A stretch of DNA of 64,000 nucleotides from an uncultured delta proteobacterium (GTDB lineage: Bacteria; Desulfobacterota; BSN033; UBA1163). The notes beneath the pieces were generated by a model. It was not told where the DNA came from and ran no database searches. It was given only the letters and a program-made list of their open reading frames with translations. Position numbers and translations under genes: made by a program. The DNA lies in assembly GCA_963827685.1 (NCBI GenBank), contig CAWHBU010000001.1, positions 192,001 to 256,000 on the forward strand, given 5' to 3'. Below are positions 4,999-42,953 of the stretch, piece by piece; position 1 is the first letter of the stretch, and each line of letters opens with the position of its first letter.

Positions 4999-5002
4999 CT
5001 AT

Positions 5003-7525: not shown

Positions 7526-8554
7526 ATGATGTTTGTAGATGGAAAAGCCGAGGCTTTACGGATGAAGAGGATTAGCCGAAGAGATTTTTTAAGATATACT
7601 GGAGCGGTTGGAGGAACTTTATTTTTAGGTAGGAATGGAGGAATAGCGATGTCCAGCACAATGAGTCATGTTGCATTGGTGAAGACAGATAATAGGAAAA
7701 ACGGGGTGAAGACATCTTTGAAGGCCCTCAATATTAATCCCTTCAAGGGAAAGAATGTTTTAATCAAACCCAATTTCAACACCGCTGATATCCCGCCGGG
7801 CTCCGCGCACAACGATACATTAATGGCATTAGTGGAAGAGGTCTGGGGAATGGGGGCTAAATCGATCAGCCTCGGAGAAAGAAGCTATCCACCTACCCGT
7901 GAGGTGATGGAGAAAAAAGGCATTCTGCCCGTTCTGGATAAATTGAACGTAAAGGTTATTGACTTTGATCATCTTGACGAAAAGGATTGGGTGTTATTCA
8001 AGCCTAAGAAGAGTCACTGGCCGAATGGGTTTCGGATTGCACGCCCCATTCTCGACGCAGAGTGCCTCATCTCCACCTGCTGCCTGAAGACCCATCAGTT
8101 TGGAGGAATCTTCACCCTATCCCTAAAGCTCCATGTCGGAGTTGTTCCCACGTTTCGTCATGGATATGATTACATGAAAGAACTTCACAGCTCTCCCGAT
8201 CAACGAAAGATGATTGCAGAGATTAATGAACCTTTTAAACCTGCCCTTATTGTCCTTGATGGAATCGATGCCTTTGTGGATGGCGGTCCTATGACTGGAA
8301 AGCCAGCGAAAGGAGAGGTCTTCCTTGCCTCTACGAATCGGGTTGCTATCGATGCAGTCGGAGTGGCCATTTTGAAACTACTCGGAAGCAATGAAAGCAT
8401 CATGAAACCAAAGATATTTGAACAAGATCAGATTGCAAGGGCAGTCGAACTTGGTTTAGGGGCATCGTCTCCTTCAGAGATCGAGGTGATGCCTGCCGAT
8501 AAGAATAGCCAGGATTTCCGCGACCGCATTATAGAGGTGTTGAGAAGAGGGTAG
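7526..8554 (+). CDS. DUF362-family protein with possible Tat signal; alternative start at 7649
   Basis: VLIKPN, LKTH.FGG.FTLSLK, DG....GGP, NRVAIDAV; SRRDFL. Confidence 0.85.
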   Translation: MMFVDGKAEALRMKRISRRDFLRYTGAVGGTLFLGRNGGIAMSSTMSHVALVKTDNRKNGVKTSLKALNINPFKGKNVLIKPNFNTADIPPGSAHNDTLMALVEEVWGMGAKSISLGERSYPPTREVMEKKGILPVLDKLNVKVIDFDHLDEKDWVLFKPKKSHWPNGFRIARPILDAECLISTCCLKTHQFGGIFTLSLKLHVGVVPTFRHGYDYMKELHSSPDQRKMIAEINEPFKPALIVLDGIDAFVDGGPMTGKPAKGEVFLASTNRVAIDAVGVAILKLLGSNESIMKPKIFEQDQIARAVELGLGASSPSEIEVMPADKNSQDFRDRIIEVLRRG

Positions 8555-8752
8555 TCTTAAGTATAAAGCTGTATTATTTTTTTATTCCATATTAGTCCAA
8601 TGTATAAAATAGTTATAATTATTTTAAATCAATCAATTCAATCACTTATAAAATCACGCCTGTTTATATTTGAAGATATGTATATTTAGAATATTCAATT
8701 TAACCTCAAATCCTCTTCCTAACAAATCCAGAGTTTCTAAAAAATTTAATAA

Positions 8753-8765
8753 TATCAAATAGTTG
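8753..8765 (+). promoter_or_regulatory. IHF binding site
   Basis: TATCAAATAGTTG matches WATCAANNNNTTR, just upstream of a sigma54 promoter in an AT-rich region. Confidence 0.6.
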
Positions 8766-8782
8766 AATAATAAATTATTCTT

Positions 8783-8798
8783 TGGCATGCCAAATGCA
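8783..8798 (+). promoter_or_regulatory. sigma54 (-24/-12) promoter
   Basis: TGGCATGCCAAATGCA: GG-N10-GC, about 40 bp before the ATG at 8837. Confidence 0.8.
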
Positions 8799-8836
8799 CT
8801 ACTTAGCTTGAACGTCGAAGAAAGGAGGAATTCAAA

Positions 8837-9121
8837 ATGGAAAAAGCAAAAAAAGGATTAAGGGTAGGGTTAATGGCTGGGATGATCACACTTATGGCTT
8901 CTCCAGCATTTGCAAGGTCGATCAGCCTGAAAGAAGGCGGGACGATGCTCTGGATCTTCATCATTGTCGGAGCGATTATCGTTCTTCTCCAATTGATCCC
9001 AGCAGCCATTCTCTTCTTCAGCTTCATTGGTACTGCAACCACCATGGCTTTGAAGAAAGAGAAGAAAGTTGAAGAGGAACTGGTTCTTCCAGGTGCTGAG
9101 CCAGTAGCGGTTAAGAAGTAG
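8837..9121 (+). CDS. Small membrane protein
   Basis: Strong RBS AAGGAGG; signal-like N-terminus and hydrophobic LLQLIPAAILFFSFIG. Confidence 0.8.
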   Translation: MEKAKKGLRVGLMAGMITLMASPAFARSISLKEGGTMLWIFIIVGAIIVLLQLIPAAILFFSFIGTATTMALKKEKKVEEELVLPGAEPVAVKK

Positions 9122-9141
9122 AAGAAACCATAGTAAAGGAG

Positions 9142-9405
9142 ATGATCGTCATGTCTGAGAAGATGAAAAAGATTCTAACAATCTTGAGTCTAGTCCTAAT
9201 AATGTCGATCTCCTTGTTCTCTTTTGGGATTGCTTACAAGGGTGGGGTCAGGGGAATAGGACTTGTGGGAGTCATGTTTTTCTTCACCTTTGGGATCATC
9301 GTGGTCCTGGCTCAATTGATTCCGGCAGGTATCCTCCTCTCCTCTTTTATCGGAGCCGCTGTCTCCCCTACGAGAAAGTCTGAGATTCCCATTCGTGTGA
9401 CGTAG
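9142..9405 (+). CDS. Small membrane protein, paralog of 8837..9121
   Basis: Shared LAQLIPAGILLSSFIG segment; RBS AAGGAG. Confidence 0.8.
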   Translation: MIVMSEKMKKILTILSLVLIMSISLFSFGIAYKGGVRGIGLVGVMFFFTFGIIVVLAQLIPAGILLSSFIGAAVSPTRKSEIPIRVT

Positions 9406-9425
9406 GAGGAATGGAATAGGAGGAG

Positions 9426-9860
9426 ATGACCATGAAATCAAAGACGATACTATTAGCCTATCAGGATGATTCTTGGACCCGATCGCTCTCCACTTTTTTC
9501 CATGGCATGGGATATAAGGTTGAAATAACAAAGGTGATGAGCGAGATGATTCGGCGGATTCGAAAAGGGAATATTCATGTCATTCTCATCGACGATGAGA
9601 TCGAAGGGGTGAAGGCATGCGATGTCGTCCCCTTGTTGAAAAATATCAATCCGAAGATTCAAATTATCGTCATCTCGTCAGAAGAATCTATTGGGTTGGT
9701 GAAACGTCTCCGGGGAGCGGGAATCTTCTATCAGGCGATGAAACCTGTGGATCTGGGTGAAATCAAGTCAGCCGTGGAATGCGCCTTTGGGAAGATTGAA
9801 CGGGAAAGTACCAAAGAAGGATTCTTCTCCTTTCTCACTCCAGAGATGGTTCCGGCATAA
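9426..9860 (+). CDS. Stand-alone response-regulator receiver domain (atypical acidic pocket)
   Basis: VILIDD, IIVISS, MKPV motifs. Confidence 0.85.
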   Translation: MTMKSKTILLAYQDDSWTRSLSTFFHGMGYKVEITKVMSEMIRRIRKGNIHVILIDDEIEGVKACDVVPLLKNINPKIQIIVISSEESIGLVKRLRGAGIFYQAMKPVDLGEIKSAVECAFGKIERESTKEGFFSFLTPEMVPA

Positions 9861-10066
9861 GGTCTGAGTCAATCCCACCCTCCACCCAATACAGGATTAA
9901 ACTCAAATCTGCAATTGTACCCCATTCTACGAGTGTTCTCTACGGTTTCCTCCATGCAGAGCTTCAGCATCGTCCTAAAATGATTGGGACATTTAAGGTT
10001 GCTCACAATTTCTTGGATATGGCACAGTTGTGAATGAGAAGGGCATATTACAATAGCCTACTTATG

Positions 10067-10111
10067 CTAGACTCGATTCTCTAGGATCACCGGGTCCACA
10101 ATCTCTCCACA
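10067..10111 (-). pseudogene. Remnant of the zinc-ribbon microprotein family seen at 44329..44472
   Basis: Reads CGEIVDPVILENRV* versus CGEIVDKVILENRL. Confidence 0.55.
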
Positions 10112-10282
10112 GGGCAGTTCCTGCAGGGGGGGATTCCTCCCTGGTCCTTGGCGAACCACAAAAATGGGGTAGGCCAGGAATACCAAAAACTTCATCAGAG
10201 AAGAAGGGAAAAAAGAAGTTGATCCCGACAAAGGATGTGCCCTATACTGGAGTTAAAGCTATTTATTCCTAAAGGAGGAACT

Positions 10283-10624
10283 ATGTTCTTCATCGTTCGA
10301 TTGATCATTAATATGGTGGCCATCCTGATCATCTCTTATCTCTTTCCAAGGATGATCCGGGTAGATGGATTTTTAGCCGCTTTGGTCGCTGCTTTTCTCC
10401 TGGGGATCGTCAACACGATCCTCCGGCCCATTCTGGTCTTGCTCACCCTTCCCATCACCTTGTTGACATTAGGACTCTTCTTATTGGTCATCAATGGATT
10501 GATGCTTTGGTTGGTATCAGCCCTGGTCAGAGGGTTTCATGTCAGTGGTTTTTGGGGCGCGGTGTTGGGCTCAATCTTGATTAGCATCGTGAGCTGGATA
10601 TTGTCCAGGTTTTTACCCTCCTGA
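10283..10624 (+). CDS. YvlD-like 4-TM membrane protein (phage holin family 4-like)
   Basis: RBS AAAGGAGG before ATG 10283; LGIVNTILRPILVLLTLPITLLTLGLF. Confidence 0.88.
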   Translation: MFFIVRLIINMVAILIISYLFPRMIRVDGFLAALVAAFLLGIVNTILRPILVLLTLPITLLTLGLFLLVINGLMLWLVSALVRGFHVSGFWGAVLGSILISIVSWILSRFLPS

Positions 10625-26736: not shown

Positions 26737-27450
26737 TCATCTCAGCCTTCCCTCTACCGCCTTCCACTGGATATTCTTGAAGAAGGCTTCAATATAATCG
26801 GCCCTCTTCAACCCATAATCGATCATAAAGGCATGTTCAAAGACATCCAAAATTAAGAGGGGCGTGCAACCAGCAGGGTGTCCCACATCATGCTCATTGA
26901 TCCAGAAGTTGAACAGTTTTCCTGTGAGTGGATCCTGATAGAGAATGGCCCAACCGATCCCTCGCATCGCCCCGACGGCCCTGAATTCCTTTTCCCAGTT
27001 GTCGAGACTTCCAAACTCTTCAGAGATTTTTTTGAACAACTTTCCTGTTTTTTCCAACGCTCCCTTTCCCCCCAGATTTTCGAAGTAATATTCATGAAGC
27101 CTCATTCCGTTGAATTCCCATCCAAATCGCCTCTTCAACTCAGCAAACTCCAGAGAGCCCACTTTTCCCTCCTTGAGCATCTGGTTGAGGATTTCGACGA
27201 GTTTATTCGTATTCGTGACGTAACCCTGGTAAAGGGTGAAGTGGTTTTTTAAAAGGGTGTCGCTGAATCCTTCCATTCCCAAAAGCCGGCTGTAATCTTT
27301 AGTGATATAAGAGATCTTTTCCTCCTTTTTCATTTGAGCGAAAGAGAGGTCGGGTTGCCCGGACAGAAGGGCGATGCTTCCAAGGCCCGACAAGAATAAA
27401 AACTGGCGTCGATCGAAAACCCATGTTTTTAAAATCTCCTTTGTTACCAT
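26737..27450 (-). CDS. Fe/Mn superoxide dismutase family protein with Tat-like signal
   Basis: NHFTLYQGYV, NGMRLHEYYF, DVFEHAF; N-terminal DRRQFL. Confidence 0.9.
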   Translation of the reverse strand: MVTKEILKTWVFDRRQFLFLSGLGSIALLSGQPDLSFAQMKKEEKISYITKDYSRLLGMEGFSDTLLKNHFTLYQGYVTNTNKLVEILNQMLKEGKVGSLEFAELKRRFGWEFNGMRLHEYYFENLGGKGALEKTGKLFKKISEEFGSLDNWEKEFRAVGAMRGIGWAILYQDPLTGKLFNFWINEHDVGHPAGCTPLLILDVFEHAFMIDYGLKRADYIEAFFKNIQWKAVEGRLR

Positions 27451-28896: not shown

Positions 28897-29029
28897 TTTT
28901 TTAGTTTTAGATGGAGAATGCAAGAACATGTTCGAGGAATGAGGATTGAGGAGTCAGGGAATTCAAAAATTCACGAATTGAGGTATTCAAGGAGTTGAAA
29001 TTCCTAAGTCCGAAATGGATGCAGGTAAA

Positions 29030-29743
29030 ATGAAAGAGTTCACCGCTGAGGAATTGACATCTTTTGACGGAAAGGAGGGTAGACCCGTCTATATCGCCTT
29101 TCAAGGGAAAGTTTATGATGTCAGGGAAAGCCCTCTCTGGGCCAAAGGCCTTCACATGAACAGGCATCCCTCGGGTAAGGACCTTGCGGGAGAGATCTCC
29201 GCGGCTCCTCATGGAACAGAGGTCCTTGAACGATATCCCCAGGTGGGGGTTTTGAAAAAAGGAGCACCCGAAGAATTGAAACACCTTCCTTCTATGCTTC
29301 AGAACCTCCTTCAAAAATTTCCAATGGCAAAACGCCATCCTCACCCCATGGTCGTCCATTTTCCTATCGCCCTCTTAATGGCCTCCCCCCTCTTTGTCCT
29401 TCTCTCCCTTATCTTCAAGAATCCTTCCTTTGAGATCACCAGCCTCTACCTCCTCATTCTTGGAGCAATCGGCTCTCCCTTTGCCATGGCCACAGGACTC
29501 CTTACATGGTGGATCAATTATCGATTGAAGCTCACCTATTTTGTAAAAAGAAAGATCCAGCTTTCTATCCTTCTTCTGATTTTCGAGATCATTCTCCTCC
29601 TCTGGCGTGGTTTTCAATCCCAGATATCTCATCCCATCTATTTCATCTTGATCGTTATCCTCGCCCCCATCGTTTCCCTCTTGGGTTACTACGGAGGACA
29701 GATGACCTTTCCCATGGAGAAATCAAACGCGGTGACGGAGTGA
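29030..29743 (+). CDS. Cytochrome b5-like domain fused to a DUF2231-like membrane domain
   Basis: FT.EEL..FDG.EGRP.YIA..GKVYDV, H..GKDL, APHG; HPHPMVVHFPIA. Confidence 0.88.
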   Translation: MKEFTAEELTSFDGKEGRPVYIAFQGKVYDVRESPLWAKGLHMNRHPSGKDLAGEISAAPHGTEVLERYPQVGVLKKGAPEELKHLPSMLQNLLQKFPMAKRHPHPMVVHFPIALLMASPLFVLLSLIFKNPSFEITSLYLLILGAIGSPFAMATGLLTWWINYRLKLTYFVKRKIQLSILLLIFEIILLLWRGFQSQISHPIYFILIVILAPIVSLLGYYGGQMTFPMEKSNAVTE

Positions 29744-31401: not shown

Positions 31402-31848
31402 CTATTTCAATACTTCATCATCGTAGAGTTTTTCAATGTAATACTTGTGCTTGCTCTCCTCCTGAATCAGAAAGGTGAAGAGATTTCCAAGATTTTCATC
31501 TTGGTTCTTCCCATTCAAATCCGTATAAAGTTTTACCGAACGTTCTTCTCTCTTCATTGCCATTCGGAGAATGTCTCCGTAAGGAATATCGGGCTTTAAT
31601 TCGGCTTCAACCATATAATCACTGATCTTCAGATTCGGAATTTTCTCGATCTTTCCCAATATGATTTTTCCTGCTCGCACCTCTTCGAGCTTTCTTTTGT
31701 GCCCCTCTTCCTGCTTCATAAAGTCCAAAAAAAGATCCTTGGTCCCAGAGTGTTTTACCATTTTGCTTGCTTTGTCATAAAAATCCATCGATTCGATCTC
31801 TCTTTGAATGGCAAATTGGATAATCTCCTTAAATTTCTTCTCGTCCAT
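31402..31848 (-). CDS. Ferritin-like (rubrerythrin diiron domain) protein
   Basis: AIQRE..QEEGH and AMKRE..EESKH. Confidence 0.9.
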   Translation of the reverse strand: MDEKKFKEIIQFAIQREIESMDFYDKASKMVKHSGTKDLFLDFMKQEEGHKRKLEEVRAGKIILGKIEKIPNLKISDYMVEAELKPDIPYGDILRMAMKREERSVKLYTDLNGKNQDENLGNLFTFLIQEESKHKYYIEKLYDDEVLK

Positions 31849-32023: not shown

Positions 32024-34126
32024 CTATCTATCTCTTCTGAGCAGGCGCATGGAGCTGAGGATGACAAGGAGTGAACTGGCTTGGTGCATCACAGCGCCCA
32101 GGATCATGGTCACCCATCCCTGGGCTGAGAGAATGACCATGATTGTATTAAAAACGAGTGCAAAGATGAGGTTTTCCTTGATCACCCGGAGGGCTTTCCG
32201 AGAGAGTCGAACGACAGTGGAAATCTTCCCGAGATCATCGGCCATCAGGGCGATGTCGGCTGTCTCAATGGCCACATCCGTTCCCACCGCTCCCATGGCG
32301 ATACCGATGTCGGCTGCGGCGAGGGCGGGGGCATCATTCACACCGTCACCGACCATAGCCACCACTTGACCTTGCTTCTTCCACTCCTTCACCCTCAGCA
32401 CCTTCTCTTCGGGAAGAAGTTTCGCTTCGTACCTTATACCCAACTCTCTTCCAATGCGGTCGGCGACCAAAACACTGTCGCCCGTAAGCATCCAAATTTC
32501 GGATACCCCTTGCTCCCTGATCTTATCGATAGCCTCCTTGGCTCCTTCCCGCAATGTATCGGCAATGGAAATGATTCCCAGAAGACGGCGATCCAATGCG
32601 ATGAGGAGGGAGGTCATCCCTTCCGATTGCTTTGACACCAACAACCCCTTCGCCGATCCCGGAATTTCAACCCCTTCGTTTTTCATCATTTCAGAACTCC
32701 CCACGATAATGGTCTTGGAGTTCCACTGAACCTTCACGCCTTTCCCTCTAAAATTTTCGAAGGACTGGGGATGAGGAATGCTCAAACCTAACTCTTCTGC
32801 TTTCTCCGTGACGGCTCTCGCTAAGGGGTGTTCAGAACGTTTCTCTGCAATCGCCGCCCAAGAAAGGACTTCTTTTTGATCCATTCCATTTAAAGCATTT
32901 ATCTCTACAACTTTTGGTCTTCCGTGTGTCAAGGTTCCGGTTTTATCCATCAAGAGGGTTTCCAATCTTCCCATCTGTTCCAGATAGACTCCTCCTTTGA
33001 TCAAGATCCCCTGCCGGGCTGCATTTCCAATGGCAGCCACCACGGCTGTGGGTGTACCCAGAACGAGTGCACACGGACAGGCCACAATGAGGATGGTGAT
33101 CGCCCGAATGATCTCCCCTGTGATCAGGAACGTGGCGAAGGCAATCAGGATGATCGCTGGGATAAAATACCGTGAGAAGCGATCCATAATCCTTTGGGTA
33201 GGAGATTTCTCTGCTTGGGCTTCTAAGATCAAACGTTTGATCTGGGCCAACTTTGTATCCTCGGCCACCTGTGTGGCTTCGATTTCGCAAGAGCCGGATT
33301 CATTGAAGGTTCCGCAGTAAACCTTATCCCCGGCCTCTTTTTCCACTGGAATCGACTCTCCGGTTAGAGTGGACTGATTGATCGAGCCACAACCAGAGAC
33401 AATTTTGCCATCCACGGGGATTCTCTCCCCGGGTCTGACAATCACAACCTCTTTGGGCTTCACGTCCTCAATGGGAACCTGAATTTCTTTATTCTCTCTT
33501 TTCACCCACGCCGTTTTCGGAGAAAGCTGAATCAAGGAAGCAATGGCCTTCCGAGTTTTTCCCACAGTAACCCCTTCCAAGAATTCACCCAGAAGCATAA
33601 TGAAAATCACTGTCGCGGCTTCCCGATAAGCCCCTACCGCAGTGGCTGAAATAGCAGCAATGGAGACCAGGGTATCCACATTGAGATCGGGGATAAGGAG
33701 CGTCTTCACGGCACTCTTCACAATCGGGTAGCTGCCAAGAATCAAGGAAGCGATGGCAAGGGCAGTCGGGAGGTAGGAGGGGCTCAAACCGATCCACACG
33801 AAAATCCAAGAGAGGCCGAGAGTAACTCCTGAGAGACCCAGGAAAACAAAGGATCTCCTCTCCTTCCAGAAAGTCCAAGTTCTCTCTGCGAAGGTCTCCC
33901 TGACCGCATAACCAGGTTTGGTAATTGCTTTTTTGATCCGCTCTTCTTCTACCCGATGGGGGTCGTAGTAGATGGTGGCTGATGAGAGAACATAACTGAC
34001 CTCTGCTGAGAGGACTCCGGGGACATGTTCCACCGAGCGTTCGATATTCAGGGCGCAATCACCGCAGTGGATGTTCTCAATGTTGACGACGATCTTCGAC
34101 TTGCCTTCGAACTTCTTTTCTTCCAT
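32024..34126 (-). CDS. Heavy-metal P1B-type ATPase with N-terminal HMA domain
   Basis: HCGDC, TGES, CPC, DKTGT, SEHP, GDGVNDAP. Confidence 0.95.
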   Translation of the reverse strand: MEEKKFEGKSKIVVNIENIHCGDCALNIERSVEHVPGVLSAEVSYVLSSATIYYDPHRVEEERIKKAITKPGYAVRETFAERTWTFWKERRSFVFLGLSGVTLGLSWIFVWIGLSPSYLPTALAIASLILGSYPIVKSAVKTLLIPDLNVDTLVSIAAISATAVGAYREAATVIFIMLLGEFLEGVTVGKTRKAIASLIQLSPKTAWVKRENKEIQVPIEDVKPKEVVIVRPGERIPVDGKIVSGCGSINQSTLTGESIPVEKEAGDKVYCGTFNESGSCEIEATQVAEDTKLAQIKRLILEAQAEKSPTQRIMDRFSRYFIPAIILIAFATFLITGEIIRAITILIVACPCALVLGTPTAVVAAIGNAARQGILIKGGVYLEQMGRLETLLMDKTGTLTHGRPKVVEINALNGMDQKEVLSWAAIAEKRSEHPLARAVTEKAEELGLSIPHPQSFENFRGKGVKVQWNSKTIIVGSSEMMKNEGVEIPGSAKGLLVSKQSEGMTSLLIALDRRLLGIISIADTLREGAKEAIDKIREQGVSEIWMLTGDSVLVADRIGRELGIRYEAKLLPEEKVLRVKEWKKQGQVVAMVGDGVNDAPALAAADIGIAMGAVGTDVAIETADIALMADDLGKISTVVRLSRKALRVIKENLIFALVFNTIMVILSAQGWVTMILGAVMHQASSLLVILSSMRLLRRDR

Positions 34127-34181
34127 CTTTCTTGGTTTCAGATTCTGAGTCTTTCAATCTGCCATCTGCTTTCTGTAATTT

Positions 34182-34808
34182 TCAGTCTCCCCAACTCCAT
34201 AAACCCGTGTTGTGAAGACTATAATACTGGTCATTGAGCAACTTCTCATGGAGAGCCTCTTCATTGGCCAATCTTTTGTACATATCCCTTCCGCGGGGGT
34301 CCTGGGTCAACTCAGCCATGGATCGATAGTAGGCCTGCGCTTTCTTCTCTTCTCGAACGGCTATTTTCAAGGCATCCATATCCGTCAACTGCTCTTGACC
34401 TTTGGGTTTCTCCGTCTTTAAGGAGAGGGCCTTCTTTTTGAGAGACGTCCCTTCGTAGAGAATCCACTCTCCTTTCTCCTGAAGTGATTTGAGGAGGTCT
34501 TTCAATTTCTGGTAATGGTTCATCTCGAATTCGGAGAGTTGTTGAAGCATATCCCTGCCTTTTGGATTTTTCGTCTTCTTCGCTGCCTTCGAATAGGCCT
34601 GGTAAGCATTCATTTCTGCCTCCATGGCTACCTTGACAGCCTTGATATCCTCTCTCTTTGTCCACGGAACTTCCTTCCCACATTTTTTGCATGGGAGTTT
34701 CTTCTCCCTTTGGATGACATCAGCCACACTCTCAAAGCCCTCAAGCGTGATATCTGCCTCAGCACCGCATTGCTGGCAAGTCAAGGTTTCTTTTTTGCCA
34801 CTCCCCAT
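34182..34808 (-). CDS. Ferritin-like protein with N-terminal CxxC...CxxC module
   Basis: CQQC, CKKC; FEMNH, EEALH. Confidence 0.85.
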   Translation of the reverse strand: MGSGKKETLTCQQCGAEADITLEGFESVADVIQREKKLPCKKCGKEVPWTKREDIKAVKVAMEAEMNAYQAYSKAAKKTKNPKGRDMLQQLSEFEMNHYQKLKDLLKSLQEKGEWILYEGTSLKKKALSLKTEKPKGQEQLTDMDALKIAVREEKKAQAYYRSMAELTQDPRGRDMYKRLANEEALHEKLLNDQYYSLHNTGLWSWGD

Positions 34809-34832
34809 TCTTGTCTCCTTTCCTATCCAGGG

Positions 34833-35354
34833 TTATTTGGCTAACGCCTCGATCATCTCCCTGCAGAAGGCGGGCAGATCATCGGGTTTCCTCGAGGTGA
34901 TCAGGTTTCCGTCTCTGACGACCTCCTGATCCACATAATTTGCTCCAGCGTTGACCAAGTCATCTTTGATTGCGAAAAAACCCGTCACTTTCTTTCCCTT
35001 CAAAATCCCAGCAGAGACGAGCATCCAACCCGCGTGACAGATGGCGGCAATCACCTCTCCCTTCTGATGGGCCTCTCTGACAATCCTTACCATCTCTGGA
35101 TAACGTCTCATCAGATCTGGTGCATAACCTCCCGGGATGACGATACCGTCGTACTTAGACATATCGATCTCTTTCGCCCCTTTATTCACTTCCACAGGAT
35201 ATCCATGCTTGCTGGTATAGGTTTTACTGCTTCCTGTTCCCACGATCGTGACCTCTGCCCCTTCCTCCTTCAATCGAAAGTAAGGAACCCATAGTTCCAT
35301 ATCTTCATAGTTATTCTCTGCGAGGAGAACTACTTTCTTCCCTTTGAGCCGCAT
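34833..35354 (-). CDS. PfpI/DJ-1 family protein
   Basis: YEDMEL, IPGG, AICHAG, TSRKPDDLPAF. Confidence 0.93.
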   Translation of the reverse strand: MRLKGKKVVLLAENNYEDMELWVPYFRLKEEGAEVTIVGTGSSKTYTSKHGYPVEVNKGAKEIDMSKYDGIVIPGGYAPDLMRRYPEMVRIVREAHQKGEVIAAICHAGWMLVSAGILKGKKVTGFFAIKDDLVNAGANYVDQEVVRDGNLITSRKPDDLPAFCREMIEALAK

Positions 35355-35412
35355 GAAATTTCTCCCTTCTAGTTATTCCATATTGGATCGATCCCTCCAA
35401 CCTTCGATGAGA

Positions 35413-35598
35413 TTACTCATTCATAGGTTTATCCTTTTTGCCTACAAGCCGCGGGTCAATATTACCCGTTCCTCCGCAATCCGGAATATAGCAGGTCACA
35501 TCACTGAAGGTACAGGCTTGCTTGCAGGAAGGACATCGCTCGGGCACGGTATCGCTTCCAAACGTGTAATCACAATTTGAACATTTCCATTGAGTCAT
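35413..35598 (-). CDS. Small rubredoxin-like protein
   Basis: WKCSNC...PERCPSC, DVTCYIPDCG; RBS GAGGAGG. Confidence 0.85.
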   Translation of the reverse strand: MTQWKCSNCDYTFGSDTVPERCPSCKQACTFSDVTCYIPDCGGTGNIDPRLVGKKDKPMNE

Positions 35599-35617
35599 TA
35601 TTTTCACCTCCTCGTTC

Positions 35618-36037
35618 TTAAAGAAAAAATGTAAGAAAAATCACACCCAGGACGATTTGAATCAGAACAAAGAAGAAAGTACTGTAATTGATGACCATAT
35701 GAATCAGGGCAAGGCGATCTGTTCCCTTTCCCTTAGAAAGCTTCCATCCCAGGACGACCCCGATGGAGAAGAGAAGGAGGATGAGAATCGCCATATAGGC
35801 GTGGACGCCAGAAGTAAAAATTTCCCCCTTCAGATAGAATAGAGCCCCGCCCCCGAATAAAAAGCCAATCCAGAGGAGGATATAAAATCTTTTTCCAAAT
35901 CGAATATGCCTCTGCCATGGGAAATCCGAAGCGGATCCACGGCCCTTTTTGAATTGGAATCGTTTCCAGCCCAAGTAACCCGTATAGGATCCTGAAAGGA
36001 CCGCCATTAGGATGATGATGGGGTGAACGAACGCCAT
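35618..36037 (-). CDS. 4-TM membrane protein with His pairs (DUF4079/cytochrome b-like)
   Basis: HP, RH..FG, GVH, IH in or near four TM helices. Confidence 0.7.
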   Translation of the reverse strand: MAFVHPIIILMAVLSGSYTGYLGWKRFQFKKGRGSASDFPWQRHIRFGKRFYILLWIGFLFGGGALFYLKGEIFTSGVHAYMAILILLLFSIGVVLGWKLSKGKGTDRLALIHMVINYSTFFFVLIQIVLGVIFLTFFL

Positions 36038-36038
36038 C

Positions 36039-36993
36039 TCACTTTCCTCCCTCAATTTCTGCATTCCAACTGACGACGGATTGCTCGGGTCTTCCTTCGA
36101 CCTGGTAGAGAAGGGTTGAATTCACCTTGTATCGTTTTCCTGTTTCTAATGAGATCGGGTACTCGAAGGTGACCCCTTTTTGAGGAGGCACCCCATTTTT
36201 CTTAAGGGTCGAAAAGCTCTCTTCCTTAGAAAAGATTGTCTTTCCATCGGTATCCTTCACCTGGGTATTGAGGACAATCCGATAATCTCCGTATTTTCCA
36301 GTGGGCATGTTATGACCCCCCCCCTCGGTTCGTGAGAGATATTTTGACCGATCCCTTTCCTGCCTCACCCGTGATCAGGGCTGCCTCTTTGAGAAGTTTC
36401 TCGTAACTCTGCGTATGTTGGCCGACCATCCTATTCGGCACAAACATAGAAATGGGAAAACCCTGTACCGCTTTCCGCTCCACTCTTGGCATATGGCATT
36501 CCTGACAGGTCTTTTTTGAACCGCTCGCTTGCCATTCCTGAAAGGTCGGCATGTGGCACCCTGCGCAGAATTCGGATTTGAGCATTGATTCATCCTGCTC
36601 GGATTTGTGCTTGGCAGTGAGCTTATAAGGGCCATAGATCATATTATTTTTGAGATGGCAGGTGGTGCAGTTGACCCCCTCCTCCTTGTGGACTGGCCTG
36701 GTCTTTAGATTCTTCTCATCGGCAATCTCTTGAGCCGCATGGCAACTGATACATTCTTCCGCCCCATAGTTCTTCGTTCCTTTTTTAAATGGATCATTGA
36801 CAAAAGCCCTGGAGTGGAAATCCTTTGACCACTCCGCGTAGATCAGTTTATGACATTCATTGCACTCTGAAGATTTCACGGTCTTGTCACCCATCTCAAG
36901 CAGGTAATCGTATTTAGCGGCCACCAAGAACAGCGAAACCAAAACCAATCCTAAAAAAATCCATTTTCTATTTCTCATCATTTTCCTCTCCAT
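36039..36993 (-). CDS. Pentaheme cytochrome c, split by a frameshift in a G9 tract (36316-36324)
   Basis: CNECH, CISCH, CTTCH, CAGCH, CQECH; removing one G gives TNRGGGHNMPTG and joins the two ORFs. Confidence 0.85.
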
Positions 36994-37005
36994 CTTATGT
37001 TGCTA

Positions 37006-37488
37006 TTAATCTTCGTAAAGATTGAGATCATAACCCAACTGAATCGCCTTCATATTCTCTTTGAGATAGGATTTGGGCAAGAGTTTTTCCAGCTCGACAT
37101 GAGAGATGTCGAGATCGATCAATCGAAACAGCCTGCCAAGAGCGATCATGTTGCCGAAGATCGCCTGACCGAACTTCTCAATTCCTATCATACCAAAAGG
37201 AACCTCTTCATCCGTGCAGAGTCCGGTATCGCAGATCGTCTTCTGGGCAATGAGTTGATCCCCTTTTCCGTGGAGACGGATGAGAATGTCTGCCTCATCG
37301 ATCATTGGATTTTCGATAGGCCTTTGATCATAAGTGAGGTAGGCACTGATCCGTGTATTGCGAATGGAGGAATCGTAGTCAAAGAGAAGAGCGACCTCAT
37401 AGCCCAACTCCTTCAACGCCATGGCAAGGACATGGGAAATGACCCTGACCGATTGCCCTCCCACTCCTGTAAAGACGATTCGCCTCAT
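37006..37488 (-). CDS. 2-oxoacid:ferredoxin oxidoreductase gamma subunit
   Basis: GVGGQSV, NMIALG, ENMKAIQLG. Confidence 0.88.
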   Translation of the reverse strand: MRRIVFTGVGGQSVRVISHVLAMALKELGYEVALLFDYDSSIRNTRISAYLTYDQRPIENPMIDEADILIRLHGKGDQLIAQKTICDTGLCTDEEVPFGMIGIEKFGQAIFGNMIALGRLFRLIDLDISHVELEKLLPKSYLKENMKAIQLGYDLNLYED

Positions 37489-37739
37489 AGAAGTTTCTCT
37501 AAAGAACCCCTCGCTTGCCTAACATATACTTCAAATTCCAATCACCAAATCCCAAATAAGCTCCAATTTTTCAATACTCAAATTTCAAAACTTTAATTTA
37601 TTAAACAAGAATTTTGGTTATTGAAATTTTGGTCATTATTTGGCTATTGGTGCTTGCCCCGCACCGTATTAGGTACAGGGCTTGGAATTTGGTGCTTCAT
37701 AACTCCTCAAGACGTTTTAAATAATCATTCAGCCTTTTC

Positions 37740-38774
37740 TTACTTCAACCTTCCCACCACAGGAAATTTAAAAACCATATCTTCTCCGTGGGGTGCGATA
37801 TCAATATCTTTTGTCAGATCCTTGCCTGCTATATGGCACCGCATCCTTTTCTCTCCTTGAAACAGAGGGCTTGCCGAAAGATCATAGACTTTTCCCTTAT
37901 AGGCAATGAAAATGGGTTTCCCCCCTGTGCCGTCGAAACGTTGGAGCTCCTCAAGGGTGAAGGGTTTTAGATCCTCCAACGGGATCTCAGGTTTTGCCTC
38001 CACCCTCTCGACCGGCTGGGGTATTTCCCCCAGCATTGCCTTGGCGATTCCCAATTCATCTTCTTGGAGATGGTCTCTTTCGCCTTCGACAATATGGAAT
38101 CTTTCATCGAACCATTTGAACATCTGATGAGCTGTTTTGAACCCCAGCCTTCTTCCGTTGAGCTCAATGCAGTCACTGATGATGTCCACAAAACTGAATC
38201 CTTTCCAGAGGAGGGCCTCACGAATACAGGTCTTGAAATGATTGAGGTGATAGGCCGTTGTCCGGGCATAAAAATAGGGAGCCTGTTGGGTGAGGAGGTG
38301 ACCCAACCGAAGGGGAAGATAAGGTTCTCCACGAGGCGAGGTAATAGTCTTCGTCCCTTTGGGCGTGGTCGGTCCAGCCTGGCCACCCGTCAATCCATAG
38401 ATTTCGTTATCGTTACAAAAGATAGTGATGTCAGGATTTCGGCGGGAGGTGTGGAGGAGGTGGTTTCCTCCAATACTTGCCAGATCGCCATCTCCGGAGA
38501 GGACAATGACATTGAGGTCCGGACGGACGGTCTTGATGGTCTCCGCCGAAGTCAGCACCCGGCCATGGGGAGTGTGAATCGCATCTAAGTTCATATATCC
38601 TGACATTCTTCCTGAACAACCGATTCCAGAGACGGCAACCGTATTTTTATCGTTCCAGCCGAGCTCTTTGATAGCCATGGCCGCATTTTTCAATACGGCA
38701 CCAATGCCGCAGCCAGGGCACCAGGTGTGAGGGAACCGCCTCATCTTTAGGAGTTCTTTATAAGAACGATCCAT
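37740..38774 (-). CDS. 2-oxoacid:ferredoxin oxidoreductase beta subunit fused to a C-terminal cytochrome b5-like domain
   Basis: WCPGCG, GIGCSG, GDGD..SIGGNH, YGLTGGQ; then FTLEEL..FDG...GKVYDL...HIAGKDLT...APHG. Confidence 0.9.
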   Translation of the reverse strand: MDRSYKELLKMRRFPHTWCPGCGIGAVLKNAAMAIKELGWNDKNTVAVSGIGCSGRMSGYMNLDAIHTPHGRVLTSAETIKTVRPDLNVIVLSGDGDLASIGGNHLLHTSRRNPDITIFCNDNEIYGLTGGQAGPTTPKGTKTITSPRGEPYLPLRLGHLLTQQAPYFYARTTAYHLNHFKTCIREALLWKGFSFVDIISDCIELNGRRLGFKTAHQMFKWFDERFHIVEGERDHLQEDELGIAKAMLGEIPQPVERVEAKPEIPLEDLKPFTLEELQRFDGTGGKPIFIAYKGKVYDLSASPLFQGEKRMRCHIAGKDLTKDIDIAPHGEDMVFKFPVVGRLK

Positions 38775-39820
38775 CACCCTCGCGCTCCCTTCACACACTC
38801 CTCGATCTGACTCTGAATCCATTTGAGTTTAAACCCGCCTCCTAGGCAGGGGACTTTCATCACTTTTCGGCAAATGGCGCATTCGACCCAACTCGCATAC
38901 TGACCATCACTCCCTTCAACGACAATGATGTCGCGATAAGATTGGGTCACTTCCTTCAATTCGTTCTCCAAGACAGGATAGATGCGGACAGGTCGAAATA
39001 TAGAGAAACGATCTTTTAGTGATGAAATGATCCTCGAGGTGATTCCAAAGGCGATGAGCAGGGTTTCGGAGTTCTTGCAGGGAAGATATTCAAAGAGGGG
39101 ATACTTCTCGGCAACACGATCATGACGGTCTTTCAACTCCCAGAGCCATCCTCGGTAGATCTCCGGATCATTGGTTTTCACATTTCCCATCTTATCATGA
39201 ACCGTCCCGGTGAAAAGCCTCTGGCCCCTGCCCAAAGGTTCTTTTGAGCGGGGAACGACCTCTATCGCTATGCCATCAAGATCCACTATCTCATAAAGGT
39301 GGGAAAGGAAGGCGTCCGCAAGGAGGATGACCGGTGAGAGAGATTCCTCGGCTGCATTGAAGGCCGTAGCTGTTAGACGGAAACATTCCTTTACTGAATT
39401 TGGATAGAAGGCGATAGGGTAATAGTCTCCTGCGCTTCCTGCTTTGATTTGAAGGAGATCCGATTGAGCGGGCTGAGTGGGCATCCCGGTCGATGGACCC
39501 ACCCGCATCGAATTGACGAAGACACAGGGAGCCTCCACGACATGGCCCCATCCCAAGGCCTCCTGCATCAACGAAAATCCTGGCCCTGAGGTGGCGGTAA
39601 AAGATTTAACTCCAGCTAATGAAGCAGAGATCGTGGCAATGGCCGCAGCAATTTCATCCTCGGCCTGGAGAAATCGAAATTCGGGGTTTTCATCTGAATA
39701 GAGAGCGGCCTGTTGTAGAATCTCTGAGGTCGGACTGATGGGATAGCCAGCAAAGTAGCTGGCACCGGCCCGAACCGCACCCTGAAAGATGGCTTCATTT
39801 CCAGAAACGAGGCCCTTCAT
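38774..39820 (-). CDS. 2-oxoacid:ferredoxin oxidoreductase alpha subunit
   Basis: GNEA, AGYPISP, QAEDE, TSGPGFSLMQE, RVGPSTG. Confidence 0.93.
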   Translation of the reverse strand: MKGLVSGNEAIFQGAVRAGASYFAGYPISPTSEILQQAALYSDENPEFRFLQAEDEIAAAIATISASLAGVKSFTATSGPGFSLMQEALGWGHVVEAPCVFVNSMRVGPSTGMPTQPAQSDLLQIKAGSAGDYYPIAFYPNSVKECFRLTATAFNAAEESLSPVILLADAFLSHLYEIVDLDGIAIEVVPRSKEPLGRGQRLFTGTVHDKMGNVKTNDPEIYRGWLWELKDRHDRVAEKYPLFEYLPCKNSETLLIAFGITSRIISSLKDRFSIFRPVRIYPVLENELKEVTQSYRDIIVVEGSDGQYASWVECAICRKVMKVPCLGGGFKLKWIQSQIEECVKGARG

Positions 39821-40017
39821 CCTTTTCCCTTTTCATCCATCACCTCGATGGCGATGTCAGGACAATAGCGTTCACACTGGTAACACTGGATACATCCGTC
39901 TTTCTCCATGATCTCATTCTTCTCAAGAGAGAGGACCTGAACCGGACAGACCTCTACGCAGAGGAGGCACCGTTTACAATAGATTTCATTCCAGATTACA
40001 TGGAGTCTCGGCTTCAT
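39817..40017 (-). CDS. 2x[4Fe-4S] ferredoxin (delta subunit)
   Basis: CKRCLLCVEVCP, CIQCYQCERYCP. Confidence 0.92.
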   Translation of the reverse strand: MKPRLHVIWNEIYCKRCLLCVEVCPVQVLSLEKNEIMEKDGCIQCYQCERYCPDIAIEVMDEKGKG

Positions 40018-40628
40018 GGATTCCGAACAAGCCTCCTTCCAACGTCAAAGGCCTGTTGGAGTGCCTCCGGATGTTTTAAAATATCGCCCTTGGCCTCAAC
40101 GCCCCGGAAGACAAGTTCACCTAAATATTCTGCGTTGAGGACATCAAAGAAATACTTGACCGTGAGAATGGCTCCATCGAAAACTTTCTGTCCTTTTGTC
40201 GCTCCCACGGAAATAAAGAAACCTTTTCTCTTTTTTCCTTCTTTCCCTAAGGAGGGATCTTTGAGGAGATATTTTCTTGCCCAGAGAGCCTGGGTTCGAT
40301 CAATCAGGGCCTTGGACCAGGCGGTGACACCGTAAAAAAAGATCGGCGAAGCAAGAATCACAACATCTGCCTTCAGCAGTTTGGGATAAATTTTTCCCAT
40401 ATCGTCCAAAATGATACATTTTCCCGTTTCGTCACATCCATGGCATTCTTTACAAGGGCTGATGGTAAAATCGCTGAGATAAAGACGCTCTACGCTCGCT
40501 CCCTCCTTCTCGGCTCCCTTAAGGGCCTCTTCCAAAAGAATTTCTGTATTGCCCCCTCTTCTCGGGCTGCCAAAGAGTCCCAGAACTTTCACCGAAGCCT
40601 CCAATCTCCCTCCCCTTGGACGGGCCAT
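40014..40628 (-). CDS. Iron-sulfur flavoprotein (flavodoxin family; start uncertain)
   Basis: GSPRRGGNT, CKECHGC....KC, ASPIFF. Confidence 0.9.
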   Translation of the reverse strand: MARPRGGRLEASVKVLGLFGSPRRGGNTEILLEEALKGAEKEGASVERLYLSDFTISPCKECHGCDETGKCIILDDMGKIYPKLLKADVVILASPIFFYGVTAWSKALIDRTQALWARKYLLKDPSLGKEGKKRKGFFISVGATKGQKVFDGAILTVKYFFDVLNAEYLGELVFRGVEAKGDILKHPEALQQAFDVGRRLVRNP

Positions 40629-41797
40629 GGGATCGAACCGAGATCTCTCAGTCCATCCAATTGAGGCTGATCAATCCCTTTATGCTGGACCAGTACTTTA
40701 AAAACTTCACCCATTCCCATCTCCGGTTCGATCAGGTGCTTCAACGAAAGCCTCAATTTTAGTCCCTCCAATTCAGATCTCTCCTTCCCTAAAGCCTCCA
40801 TTTGTTCGAGGATACCAAGCCCGATGAGAAAATGATATTGTGGAACGAGGCCAGTGAACTGGAGGCCAGCTTCTTCTCCCTTTCGGATCAAGCTGGTAAA
40901 GTTGACATGGGAGGTGATGTCCTGTTCCCCCAGCCGTTCATAAGGATTTTCTGAGGTTTGATGTTGAAAATAACAGAGGAGTGTCCCCTCTCGTCGATGG
41001 GGAGCATAGAGTTCCTCAGAGAGATAACCATAGTCGATCGTCAGGACGAATCCTCGCTCCAAGCACCGGGCCACCTTTTCCATCCATTCCAAGGCCCGTA
41101 GATTCACCTCTGCCTTCTGGCCCTCTTGCAGAGTGACGTCCATGGATTGGAAATAACCAGAGATCCTTGGATCAGAAGGTTCACCCCATCGCTCTTCAAA
41201 TTGGCCGTTTTGTTGAGTGACATAGAGTTCTTTTAAATTTCCTTGATCGAGGATTACTCTGTGAACAGGAAAGGCGTCAACGAGTTCATTGGAGAGGAAA
41301 CATCCTTGAATGCGAACCTTCCCGTCACTGAACTTTTTTGGGTCCATCCAAAAAACCTTTCCTTCTCTTTCTTTTTCAGAAAGTCTTTCCCTCTGCTCTT
41401 TTGAAAAAGGAGGGGCGGTCTCGATGAGGTGATAGCGGAGATGTTGGTAGAAGGCCGGTGAGCTCTTCTTCGCCCAATCTAAGATGTCCTCGCAGAGAAA
41501 CCCACTACCTCCTCCCATCTCGACCGCATCAAAATTTTCTCCTCCCAAAATCTCTGCCATCTGGAAGAGTTGTTTAGCGATCAAATGTCCGAAAAGAGGA
41601 TTGACAGAGGGACTCGTATAGTAGTCCCCCTCTTTCCCGATCCTTGTCTCATCGGATTGGTAATATCCATATTCGGGATGGTAGAGACACCACTCCATGA
41701 ATTGAGAGAAGGGAATGGGTCCCCCTTTCTCAATTTGAGAGAGAATAAATCTCCTCAAACTCTCTCCCCGGTTTCCTTTCTCTTCTTCCATATACAA
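40589..41797 (-). CDS. MidA/NDUFAF7-family SAM-dependent methyltransferase
   Basis: FMEWCLY...GYY, GDYYTS, SNELVDAFP, IDYG, QDITSHVNF. Confidence 0.9.
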   Translation of the reverse strand: MYMEEEKGNRGESLRRFILSQIEKGGPIPFSQFMEWCLYHPEYGYYQSDETRIGKEGDYYTSPSVNPLFGHLIAKQLFQMAEILGGENFDAVEMGGGSGFLCEDILDWAKKSSPAFYQHLRYHLIETAPPFSKEQRERLSEKEREGKVFWMDPKKFSDGKVRIQGCFLSNELVDAFPVHRVILDQGNLKELYVTQQNGQFEERWGEPSDPRISGYFQSMDVTLQEGQKAEVNLRALEWMEKVARCLERGFVLTIDYGYLSEELYAPHRREGTLLCYFQHQTSENPYERLGEQDITSHVNFTSLIRKGEEAGLQFTGLVPQYHFLIGLGILEQMEALGKERSELEGLKLRLSLKHLIEPEMGMGEVFKVLVQHKGIDQPQLDGLRDLGSIPWPVQGEGDWRLR

Positions 41798-42009
41798 AGG
41801 AGTTCCCTGGTGTGGTATCCGGATTGAACCAACTCCCAGCCTTCCTTTCCTTTCTCACGAAAGAGATCTTCCAGCCATTCAATGCCTCCTGGAAAGACAT
41901 CGTGGACAAAACAGAGGCCGTCCTGATCGCATTCGATGGTAGGCTTCTCTTTCCCGGCCTGCCGCTCTGGCAGTTCGTGAATCGTAATCTGATATTCCCA
42001 TTGGGTCAT
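41755..42009 (-). CDS. DUF4177-like small protein
   Basis: WEY...GKEGWELV pattern; RBS GGAAGGA. Confidence 0.7.
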   Translation of the reverse strand: MTQWEYQITIHELPERQAGKEKPTIECDQDGLCFVHDVFPGGIEWLEDLFREKGKEGWELVQSGYHTRELLCIWKKRKETGERV

Positions 42010-42104
42010 AGATCCTTCCTCTTTCTTGATTATTCAGGGTTCTTCACCCTGCGTGAACCCTATATATAAAGGAACCTTTGAATTTCAAATGACAAAGCTC
42101 AAAG

Positions 42105-42192
42105 GAGATGCCGAAATCCTTAGATCCTGAATTAAATTCAGGACCTGGTTCGGCATGACCAACGTGTCATTCTGAACTCGTTTCAGAATCCC
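42105..42192. repeat. Nested palindromic repeat (GTCATTCTGAACTCGTTTCAGAATC type)
   Basis: ATGCCGAA...TTCGGCATGAC with inner TCCTGAATTAAATTCAGGA. Confidence 0.65.
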
Positions 42193-42282
42193 GTTTTTGA
42201 AATTTGACATTCATTTGAACTTGATTCACCTTCGGTTCATCACTTCGTGCGAGCCCTGATATTTGACATTGCTTTATTATGT

Positions 42283-42605: not shown

Positions 42606-42953
42606 TCAATCGTCACTGTGATGTTTAAGAGGACCCTCCTCAAAGGCTTGATGAACCCAATTCAATGCGGCGATCATTTTTGGAAATCCAATGGTGGTCA
42701 GCCCAAGCAGGACGGCATGTCGAATCTCATCTTGAGTGACCCCCATGGCTATGGCTCTTCGGGTATGAGATTTGATGGCCCCCTCTGATTCCGAACCAAT
42801 AGCGATCCCCAGCTTGATCAGCCTCCGCATCTTTTCGTCAAGGGGCCCAGAGGCATGACATTTCTTGGCGAGACGATCATACTCCTTTTCAATCTCTGGG
42901 AATTCTTTCCTCAGACGCTTGTAGGAAAATGGAAGAGAATCCTTCTTTGGCAT
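42606..42953 (-). CDS. Carboxymuconolactone decarboxylase (AhpD-like) family protein
   Basis: GPLDEK..RLIKLGIA, SHTRRA...G...DEI.HA, TIGFP. Confidence 0.88.
   Translation of the reverse strand: MPKKDSLPFSYKRLRKEFPEIEKEYDRLAKKCHASGPLDEKMRRLIKLGIAIGSESEGAIKSHTRRAIAMGVTQDEIRHAVLLGLTTIGFPKMIAALNWVHQAFEEGPLKHHSDD

Follow-up and report, generated by a model that had tools for sequence, protein, structure and literature searches.

2-oxoacid:ferredoxin oxidoreductases (OFORs) are thiamine pyrophosphate (TPP) and iron-sulfur enzymes that pass electrons to ferredoxin, and we know of none that carries heme. What, then, could a cytochrome b5-like domain do at the end of an OFOR subunit? The question is raised by a stretch of 64,000 nucleotides (nt) from an uncultured delta proteobacterium (BSN033; UBA1163), positions 192,001-256,000 of the forward strand of contig CAWHBU010000001.1 in assembly GCA_963827685.1, which we call the window. 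An earlier sequence-only reading had noticed there an OFOR whose beta subunit runs into a b5 domain, and had proposed a heme-wired enzyme, tied to a multiheme cytochrome and a four-helix histidine protein, that might route 2-oxoacid electrons to membrane or periplasmic carriers or to oxygen defence. We find that the fusion of an OFOR with a domain of the b5M type is real, conserved and, by the searches made, apparently undescribed, a variation on a familiar type of enzyme, that one axial ligand position of its heme site has been replaced throughout, and that the cytochrome genes are an optional neighbour of the fusion.

The beta subunit of a Kor-like OFOR carries a b5M domain

Genes were called from open reading frames (ORFs) and Pfam profile matches, and the enzyme's subunits were additionally scored against NCBIfam. 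The OFOR lies in a single tight operon on the minus strand (34182-41797, Table 1), which encodes in order a MidA-like methyltransferase, an Isf-like flavoprotein, the OFOR subunits delta, alpha, beta and gamma, a c-type cytochrome, a DUF4079 protein, a rubredoxin-like protein, a PfpI protein and a rubrerythrin-like protein. The Pfam scores of delta, alpha and gamma all exceed their cut-offs, and gamma is 80-94% identical to its relatives. The beta ORF (37740-38822) is over-extended at its 5' end: we place the actual start at Met17 (MDRSYKELL; ATG at 38774, in a TGATG overlap with the alpha stop) because the 16 codons before it hold an in-frame TGA in 18 of the 25 relatives printed, and most homologues have 344-348 amino acids (aa). 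Selenocysteine, which the single TGA in many relatives' matches could have indicated, was rejected, as this TGA is codon 7 of the over-extended ORF and lies upstream of the actual start.

The TPP motif of beta (SGDGDL...CNDNEIYG, with its GDG...N signature) and four cysteines (C19, C22, C53 and C202, numbered from Met17) are invariant in 34 sequences; from solved OFORs, we take these cysteines to be the ligands of the proximal [4Fe-4S] cluster. The best solved match of beta is the beta chain of 8YS5 (E 3e-52), and the closest solved chains of alpha are 1YD7 (E 1e-49) and 8YS5 (E 1e-46). The enzyme thus shares its POR_N, TPP_enzyme_C, POR and double [4Fe-4S] subunits with the Kor-type OFORs (8YS5/8YS6 2-oxoglutarate:ferredoxin oxidoreductase; the 1YD7 alpha subunit; the two-subunit 5B46-5B48 and 6N2N), in the order delta-alpha-beta-gamma, and differs from them by the tether and heme-type domain added to beta and by scores that fall below the NCBIfam equivalog cut-offs for every subunit. 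We conclude that the predicted enzyme is a four-subunit, Kor-like 2-oxoacid:ferredoxin oxidoreductase that cannot be assigned as a Kor equivalog. With 14 matches to POR_N, the alpha-subunit domain, in the genome of the window, it is one among many OFOR loci in the cell.

The C-terminal domain of beta aligns without gaps over 76 residues with two archaeal b5M structures, at 45-47% identity (E 5e-18 to 6NZX, E 2e-16 to 6VZ6), and MAPR proteins and classical b5 score far behind (E 7e-4 for PGRMC1, 4X8Y; E about 0.08 for classical b5). The AlphaFold2 model, built from the domain of the window and 38 other single-domain b5M sequences (37 of the 39 not fused to an OFOR), has a mean predicted local distance difference test (pLDDT) of 92.4. 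It superposes on 6NZX over all 76 residues with a template modelling (TM) score of 0.92 and a root-mean-square deviation (rmsd) of 1.3 Å, and on 6VZ6 with 0.92 and 1.4 Å, versus about 0.6 and about 4 Å for classical b5 chains. The domain sequence has no HPGG, the loop with the first axial histidine of classical b5, and no tyrosine anywhere in its residues 31-61, where the MAPR ligand would lie, ahead of AGxD. By sequence and predicted fold, the domain belongs with b5M and not with classical b5 or MAPR, although it lacks the bis-His pair.

The segment ahead of the domain (about 37959-38048) has 27-52 residues, with a median of 29 among the 119 of 121 sequences that could be parsed, and its composition (E 22%, K 13%, P 11%, A 11%, V 11%) suggests a flexible tether. 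Among 26 orthologous genes (325 pairs), this linker has an amino-acid identity of 0.43 and a median ratio of nonsynonymous to synonymous substitution rates (dN/dS) of 0.34, the b5M domain 0.78 and 0.076, and the TPP core 0.88 and 0.039, all of them rough values because synonymous sites are near saturation (finite dS in 197 of the 325 pairs). The b5M domain is under purifying selection.

One axial ligand position of the heme site has been replaced

According to two preprints, the b5M structures 6NZX (Hadesarchaea) and 6VZ6 (Methanococcoides burtonii) contain heme, whose iron is ligated axially by H42 and H61 and which is contacted by S34, H46 and, in 6NZX, K68 (bioRxiv 10.1101/2021.11.17.468889; 10.1101/2021.11.30.470528). 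We number residues by the 76-residue query, on which the five named residues land on the correct letters of the PDB chains. The sequence-only reading had related the domain to a second b5 domain in the window (that of the b5M-DUF2231 protein, 49% identical) and had seen that the histidines of HxAGxDL (H46) and APHG (H61) are kept while that of GLHM is an arginine. Alignment bears out all of this; what had been missed is the meaning of the exchange, for the lost histidine is an axial iron ligand in the solved relatives. Over the window protein and its 120 homologues (Table 2), four of the five named heme contacts are kept, S34, H46 and K68 among them, and the axial H42 has given way to arginine or lysine.

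Table 2. Conservation of the heme site in 121 fused sequences (window protein and 120 homologues)
b5M position	Residue in beta ORF numbering	Residues found	Remark
S34	S318	S 121/121	heme contact
H42	R326	R 113, K 8 of 121	axial ligand lost; no bis-His pair with H61
43	M327	M 121/121	
44	R328	R 120/121	
45	C329	C 121/121	
H46	H330	H 121/121	heme contact
H61	H345	H 121/121	axial ligand
K68	K352	K 105, R 5 of 121	heme contact

This exchange is particular to the fused proteins. A search of 1.84 billion proteins gave 1326 matches, and among the best 150 cluster representatives, with 268 b5M domains, only the three that are fused to an OFOR have the R42...C45 pattern; in the other domains position 42 is a histidine or the histidine is displaced by an alignment gap. 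Among the 39 aligned single-domain b5M sequences (37 without an OFOR), the conservation of H42 is 90% or higher. The usual H42-M43-x-R45-H46 has thus become R42-M43-R44-C45-H46 in the fused clade, and the domain model places residues 44-45 in the turn of a short hairpin made by 42-43 and 46-47. Compared with the archaeal b5M proteins, the domain has the same predicted fold and shares S34, H46, H61 and K68; it differs by the Arg/Lys at 42, by the new invariant Cys45 and by its fusion to an enzyme, in contrast to b5M domains that are free-standing, in tandem or joined to DUF2231.

Since H61, S34, H46 and K68 are kept, we expect the fused domain to bind heme, and since H42 is gone and Cys45 is fixed, we expect this heme to be five-coordinate or ligated by His/Cys, or alternatively by His/Met43 or His/His46. 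The same preprints give the ligand position of this segment as variable across the superfamily, His42 in b5M and a tyrosine in MAPR, which makes it plausible that a neighbouring residue has taken over. A further relative, PGRMC1 (4X8Y), is reported to bind its heme by fewer than two histidine ligands and to leave one heme face open (PMC4802085). The fused domain belongs to the same superfamily but has no tyrosine in its ligand segment (QGEKRMRCH), lacks the MAPR-specific insertion and keeps H61. It would present a third ligand arrangement in the b5M/MAPR superfamily. Compared with a bis-His b5, the altered heme would have a lower potential or react more readily with small ligands. The candidate that the MidA-like protein is an arginine methyltransferase modifying the invariant Arg42 and Arg44 was rejected, as its gene belongs to the universal backbone of the operon and is also present where there is no OFOR.

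The fusion is conserved within one family

The sequence-only reading had allowed that the fusion might be unique to this assembly; it is not. All 120 homologues listed, with 312-368 aa and 75-94% identity, align through the b5M domain (77 of them have a precomputed PF00173 call), and 28 loci were found in species-representative genomes, all metagenome-assembled genomes (MAGs) labelled Thermodesulfobacteriota, Syntrophaceae, Syntrophorhabdus or Deltaproteobacteria. The GTDB order of the window comprises 55 genomes of a single family in 21 genera, and 29 of these genomes, from 8 of the genera, encode the fused beta, if one copy truncated at a contig end, one with frameshifts and one fragment are counted. 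When 401 genomes were sampled evenly across the phylum, the fusion was found only within this family (in 7 of its 12 sampled genomes, that of the window counted) and in none of the 390 other genomes, and the best matches outside it were unfused and 48% identical. In one MAG the fused operon occurs twice (G029, contigs C126 and C79; loci L016 and L022), and just one of the copies has the cytochrome genes; the bin may mix strains, or the operon may really be duplicated.

A second fusion was found in two partial metagenome proteins (P0154 and P0270). It has the same plan of beta subunit, linker and b5M domain, and differs by a beta of the PorB/VorB subfamily and by an intact H42. A metagenome scan with P0270 gave 80 loci of unfused PorB relatives, in none of which tblastn found a b5M domain. 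This rare second fusion, which appears to be independent, suggests that the coupling of OFOR and b5M heme is a recurring solution. No description of an OFOR-b5 fusion was found in the literature searches made, in line with the earlier proposal of an undescribed system, although the supplementary protein lists of the two preprints on b5M cytochromes might contain such architectures.

The fused OFOR is an insert in an oxygen-defence backbone

In what company does the fusion occur? Isf proteins are defined by a flavodoxin-like FMN_red fold and a compact CX2CX2CX4-7C cluster motif, and both are present in the Isf-like protein, the first as a Pfam match and the second as CKECHGCDETGKC in the translation. 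Among the 26 related loci that reach past gamma, the order is methyltransferase, Isf, delta, alpha, beta with its b5M domain, gamma and, further on, the rubrerythrin-like gene; a rubredoxin-like gene is present in 22 of the 26 (it was not detected in L005, L024, L027 and L028). Isf orthologues were found in 53 and rubrerythrin-like orthologues in 52 of the 55 family genomes. Where there is no OFOR, the two genes are 250-1434 nt apart on a single contig: 856 nt in a genome of the same genus (G051, on a large contig) and 256 nt in G021. The methyltransferase gene immediately precedes Isf in every locus long enough to show it, including two that lack the OFOR (G006 and G007), and a MidA/NDUFAF7-like gene heads the operon in every locus seen. 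Nearly every genome of the family has the backbone from Isf to the rubrerythrin-like gene, and two blocks are inserted in it independently at the same place: the OFOR-b5M block and the cytochrome cassette (the pair of cytochrome and DUF4079 genes). The link of the OFOR-b5M block to oxygen defence is well supported by this context.

The other b5M protein of the window, a fusion with the membrane domain DUF2231, was considered as a dedicated partner of the fused OFOR and rejected. The two proteins are the only PF00173 matches in the 5.2-Mb genome, but 41 of the 55 genomes have the DUF2231 fusion gene, whether or not they have the fused OFOR, and its linkage is loose: its distance to the rubrerythrin-like gene is 3-37 kb on a shared contig, and in other genomes the two lie on separate contigs. 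The combination of b5M and DUF2231 is a common architecture among b5M relatives.

What the tethered domain may do

Our preferred reading, in which we place about as much belief as doubt, is that the OFOR-b5M block would be a dedicated, 2-oxoacid-driven electron source for oxygen and peroxide defence, with a tethered non-canonical heme. A 2-oxoacid and coenzyme A would be oxidised at TPP, and the electrons would then pass through the [4Fe-4S] cluster of beta and the two clusters of delta. From there they could leave 1) directly to the Isf-like flavoprotein, or 2) by the tethered heme domain, which would swing between the iron-sulfur chain and an acceptor, either the rubredoxin-like or rubrerythrin-like protein or O2/H2O2 itself. 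Tethered b5 domains that swing are known from flavocytochrome b2, sulfite oxidase and cellobiose dehydrogenase; these enzymes, and likewise assimilatory nitrate reductase, have bis-His or Met/His hemes, flavin or molybdenum partners and aerobic owners. The beta subunit of the window resembles them in having a small heme-type domain on a flexible linker by a catalytic redox domain, from which a swinging-arm transfer would be expected, and differs in that its partner is a TPP and iron-sulfur enzyme of an anaerobe and its heme site is altered. Additions to the C-terminus are also known from pyruvate:ferredoxin oxidoreductases (PFORs), i.e. the P450-reductase-like domain of the pyruvate:NADP+ oxidoreductase of Euglena and Cryptosporidium, and domain VII of the Desulfovibrio africanus enzyme, a disulfide switch that protects the clusters from O2. 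The OFOR of the window likewise bears a C-terminal extension, and these additions redirect electrons or guard against oxygen; unlike the domain described here, however, they are not heme domains and sit on single-chain PFORs rather than on Kor-type heterotetramers.

A number of points weigh against the reading of an electron source for oxygen defence. First, the axial H42 is replaced in every one of the 121 fused sequences, so that one of the two axial ligands is gone. Second, the putative role of the Isf-like protein in the reduction of O2 and H2O2 is transferred to this locus from work on Methanosarcina, and a PDB search with the Isf-like protein gave generic FMN (flavin mononucleotide) reductases only. 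Third, the scores fall below those of the 2-oxoglutarate KorAB/OorAB equivalogs, with 206.6 bits against 402 and 205.5 against 364 for beta and 284.3 (NF006412) against 411 for alpha. Fourth, the AlphaFold2 model of the whole beta with 34 close homologues has a mean pLDDT of 39.6, which leaves the docking and the linker geometry unreadable; a complex prediction of the b5M domain and delta, with heme and two 4Fe-4S clusters, scored 0.00 in a run without controls and speaks neither for nor against. Fifth, the synteny is drawn from one family, where a conserved order may reflect inheritance rather than functional coupling, and the backbone occurs without the fused OFOR in 26 of the 55 genomes. 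To these the roughness of the dN/dS values has to be added.

The tethered domain might instead be a redox or gas sensor switch, which we hold to be unlikely. The heme, as a Cys45/His61 thiolate or five-coordinate, would change its ligation with redox state, O2, CO or NO, and the domain would then dock and shield or silence the oxygen-labile iron-sulfur chain, with no catalytic flux, in analogy to the disulfide-controlled C-terminal domain VII of the Desulfovibrio africanus PFOR. An axial histidine that is replaced, with a clade-specific invariant cysteine three residues on, beside the invariant Met43 and His46, would suit such a switch, and so would a C-terminal extension on a flexible tether in an oxidative-stress operon. 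However, the independent PorB-type fusion retains the bis-His site typical of electron carriers, and no sensor output domain is present.

Rather less probable still, in our judgement, is a reading in which the altered heme, with His61 proximal and Arg42, Cys45 and His46 on the open side, would itself reduce O2 or H2O2, making the enzyme a self-contained 2-oxoacid:oxygen/peroxide oxidoreductase with the Isf-like and rubrerythrin-like proteins as parallel sinks. The distal pair of arginine and histidine is reminiscent of peroxidase pockets. We very much doubt, finally, that after the loss of H42 the domain became a heme-free structural or docking module that would bring, e.g., a partner protein to the enzyme. 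An axial ligand is indeed lost throughout and the Pfam score barely exceeds its cut-off (27.4 versus 23.7 bits), but the fused sequences keep the four other named heme contacts (S34, H46 and H61 in 121/121, K68 as Lys or Arg in 110/121), the predicted fold retains the crevice (TM 0.92), a dN/dS of 0.076 argues against decay, and PGRMC1 is reported to bind heme by a single protein ligand (PMC4802085).

The cytochrome cassette is facultative

The sequence-only reading had given the gene order correctly, with overlaps or short gaps except for the repeat between beta and gamma, as the ORFs and a repeat search confirm, and had tied the fused OFOR to the pair of cytochrome and four-helix membrane protein that follows gamma. 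In its proposal, electrons would pass from the b5M heme to a di-heme b of DUF4079, then to the pentaheme cytochrome c and an outside acceptor or a periplasmic oxygen defence. There is something to be said for such a conduit. In seven genomes (and in 6 of the 26 related loci), the pair immediately follows gamma and precedes the rubredoxin-like gene. The cytochrome gene encodes five CxxCH motifs behind an N-terminal anchor, and DUF4079, which always co-occurs with it, probably starts at Met10 of its ORF (36037) and has four histidines (H14, H53, H88 and H122) that are invariant in nine of nine orthologues, one at the start of each helix and alternating between the two membrane faces, which makes it a candidate di-heme cytochrome b. 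A literature search on DUF4079 gave one unrelated mention only.

Conservation of the neighbourhood was to decide this point, and it holds for the backbone but not for the cytochrome genes. The pair is found in 9 of the 55 family genomes, with a remnant in a tenth, and adjoins the fused OFOR in only 7 of the 29 genomes with the fusion; with these queries, the other 22 show no cassette. Furthermore, G006 and G007 hold it in the same operon without the OFOR block, the order being methyltransferase, Isf, cytochrome, DUF4079, rubredoxin-like, PfpI and rubrerythrin-like. A heme conduit of multiheme c and di-heme b is therefore no obligate companion of the fused OFOR, and the presence of the cassette in operons devoid of OFOR relates it to the backbone rather than specifically to the b5M domain. 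The remnant, 53 residues of the C-terminal part of the cytochrome between Isf and the rubrerythrin-like gene of a cassette-free genome (G016:C398:1765-1923), looks like a trace of cassette loss.

The cytochrome of the window is, moreover, broken. A gene with five CxxCH is present, as had been noted, but the ORF then taken for it (36310-36993) is only the N-terminal part of a gene of about 313 aa, the remainder of which (GGGHNMPTG...) lies in the ORF 36039-36368, and the frame shifts at a run of nine G (36316-36324, minus strand). The orthologue in L002 is one open frame of 313 aa, and the eight copies examined in relatives have five CxxCH each, no internal stop and 305-332 aa as translated. 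Contigs of the public run X2 show zero differences to the window over the pieces listed and keep the nine G, although X2 may be the source sample and then would not be independent of the assembly; contigs of the runs X1 and X4 (about 98% identical) have one base fewer at 36316, which restores the frame. With nine G in X2 and eight in X1 and X4, the break seems to be real for the strain and recent, and could reflect recent pseudogenisation or an on/off switch by slipped-strand mispairing. With so few fusion genomes holding the cassette, with the cassette also in operons devoid of OFOR, and with the cytochrome of the window frameshifted, its nine G matched exactly in X2, we consider the membrane conduit very improbable. 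Given that the cassette does not consistently accompany the fusion, electron delivery to carriers in the membrane or periplasm would be at most an optional extra; what stands of the earlier proposal is the place of the fusion among oxygen-defence genes.

Other features of the locus

Gene junctions in the operon are start/stop overlaps or gaps of 2-12 nt, with the 251-nt spacer between beta and gamma as the sole exception (Table 1). This spacer, which measures 0-285 nt among relatives, contains an inverted repeat of 48 nt (75% complementary) with 44 additional partial matches of 68-96% identity elsewhere in the genome, and looks like an element of this lineage of the miniature inverted-repeat transposable element or repetitive extragenic palindromic kind. 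An Rfam scan of 34000-42200, spacer included, gave no match at E 0.1 or better, and a scan for promoters and terminators found fewer sites than in shuffles. Around the operon, the window encodes a Fe/Mn superoxide dismutase (26737-27450), a rubrerythrin-like fragment (31402-31848), a heavy-metal P-type ATPase (32024-34126) and a CMD/AhpD-family gene (42606-42953), which give it a neighbourhood of stress genes. None of the listed holders of this stretch is recorded as RNA.

Table 1. Features of the operon and related loci (window coordinates unless a locus is named)
Feature	Coordinates	Strand	Evidence and remarks
MidA/NDUFAF7-like methyltransferase (Methyltransf_28)	40589-41797	-	Pfam 229.3 bits; first operon gene; 3' end overlaps Isf start
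Isf-like flavoprotein	40014-40628	-	PF03358 (FMN_red) 77.4 bits; CX2CX2CX5C motif CKECHGCDETGKC
OFOR delta, 66 aa	39817-40017	-	Fer4 families 36.8 bits; two CxxCxxCxxxCP motifs; ATGA overlaps with Isf and alpha
OFOR alpha, 348 aa	38774-39820	-	POR_N 169.3 bits
OFOR beta core (TPP-binding domain, cluster cysteines, then linker of about 29 residues)	37959-38774	-	PF02775 (TPP_enzyme_C) 71.1 bits, cut-off 21.9
C-terminal cytochrome b5M domain of beta	37740-37958	-	PF00173 (Cyt-b5) 27.4 bits, cut-off 23.7, aa 289-359
Beta-gamma spacer with dispersed AT-rich palindromic repeat	37489-37739		arms 37539-37586 and 37609-37656
OFOR gamma, 160 aa	37006-37488	-	PF01558 (POR) 52.3 bits
Pentaheme c-type cytochrome gene, N-terminal hydrophobic anchor	36039-36993	-	5 CxxCH; broken by +1 frameshift in run of nine G
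DUF4079 four-helix membrane protein	35618-36037 (ORF to 36064)	-	PF13301 39.2 bits
Rubredoxin-like protein (rubrerythrin-type rubredoxin domain), 64 aa	35413-35607	-	PF21349 35 bits
DJ-1/PfpI family protein	34833-35354	-	PF01965 186.6 bits; optional operon member, present or absent among relatives
Rubrerythrin-like diiron protein, N-terminal CxxC...CxxC ribbon	34182-34808	-	PF02915 49.3 bits; last operon gene
b5M and DUF2231 membrane protein	29015-29743	+	Pfam; H42, H46, H61 intact
Cassette operons without OFOR	L031 (G006:C32) 5700-10450; L032 (G007:C120) 3800-8550		cassette directly after Isf

Implications

A conserved, tethered heme-type domain with a rebuilt iron site suggests a new way of coupling the oxidation of central metabolites to oxygen and peroxide defence in strict anaerobes or, alternatively, a way to protect an oxygen-labile enzyme. 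The setting would be oxic-anoxic interfaces such as those of sediment and peat. The family is a natural experiment in this respect, with close genomes that hold the backbone alone, the backbone with the OFOR-b5M block, with the cytochrome cassette, or with both. The eukaryotic MAPR family has been proposed to derive from prokaryotic b5M proteins, and the fused OFOR would give these poorly understood proteins their first functional context.

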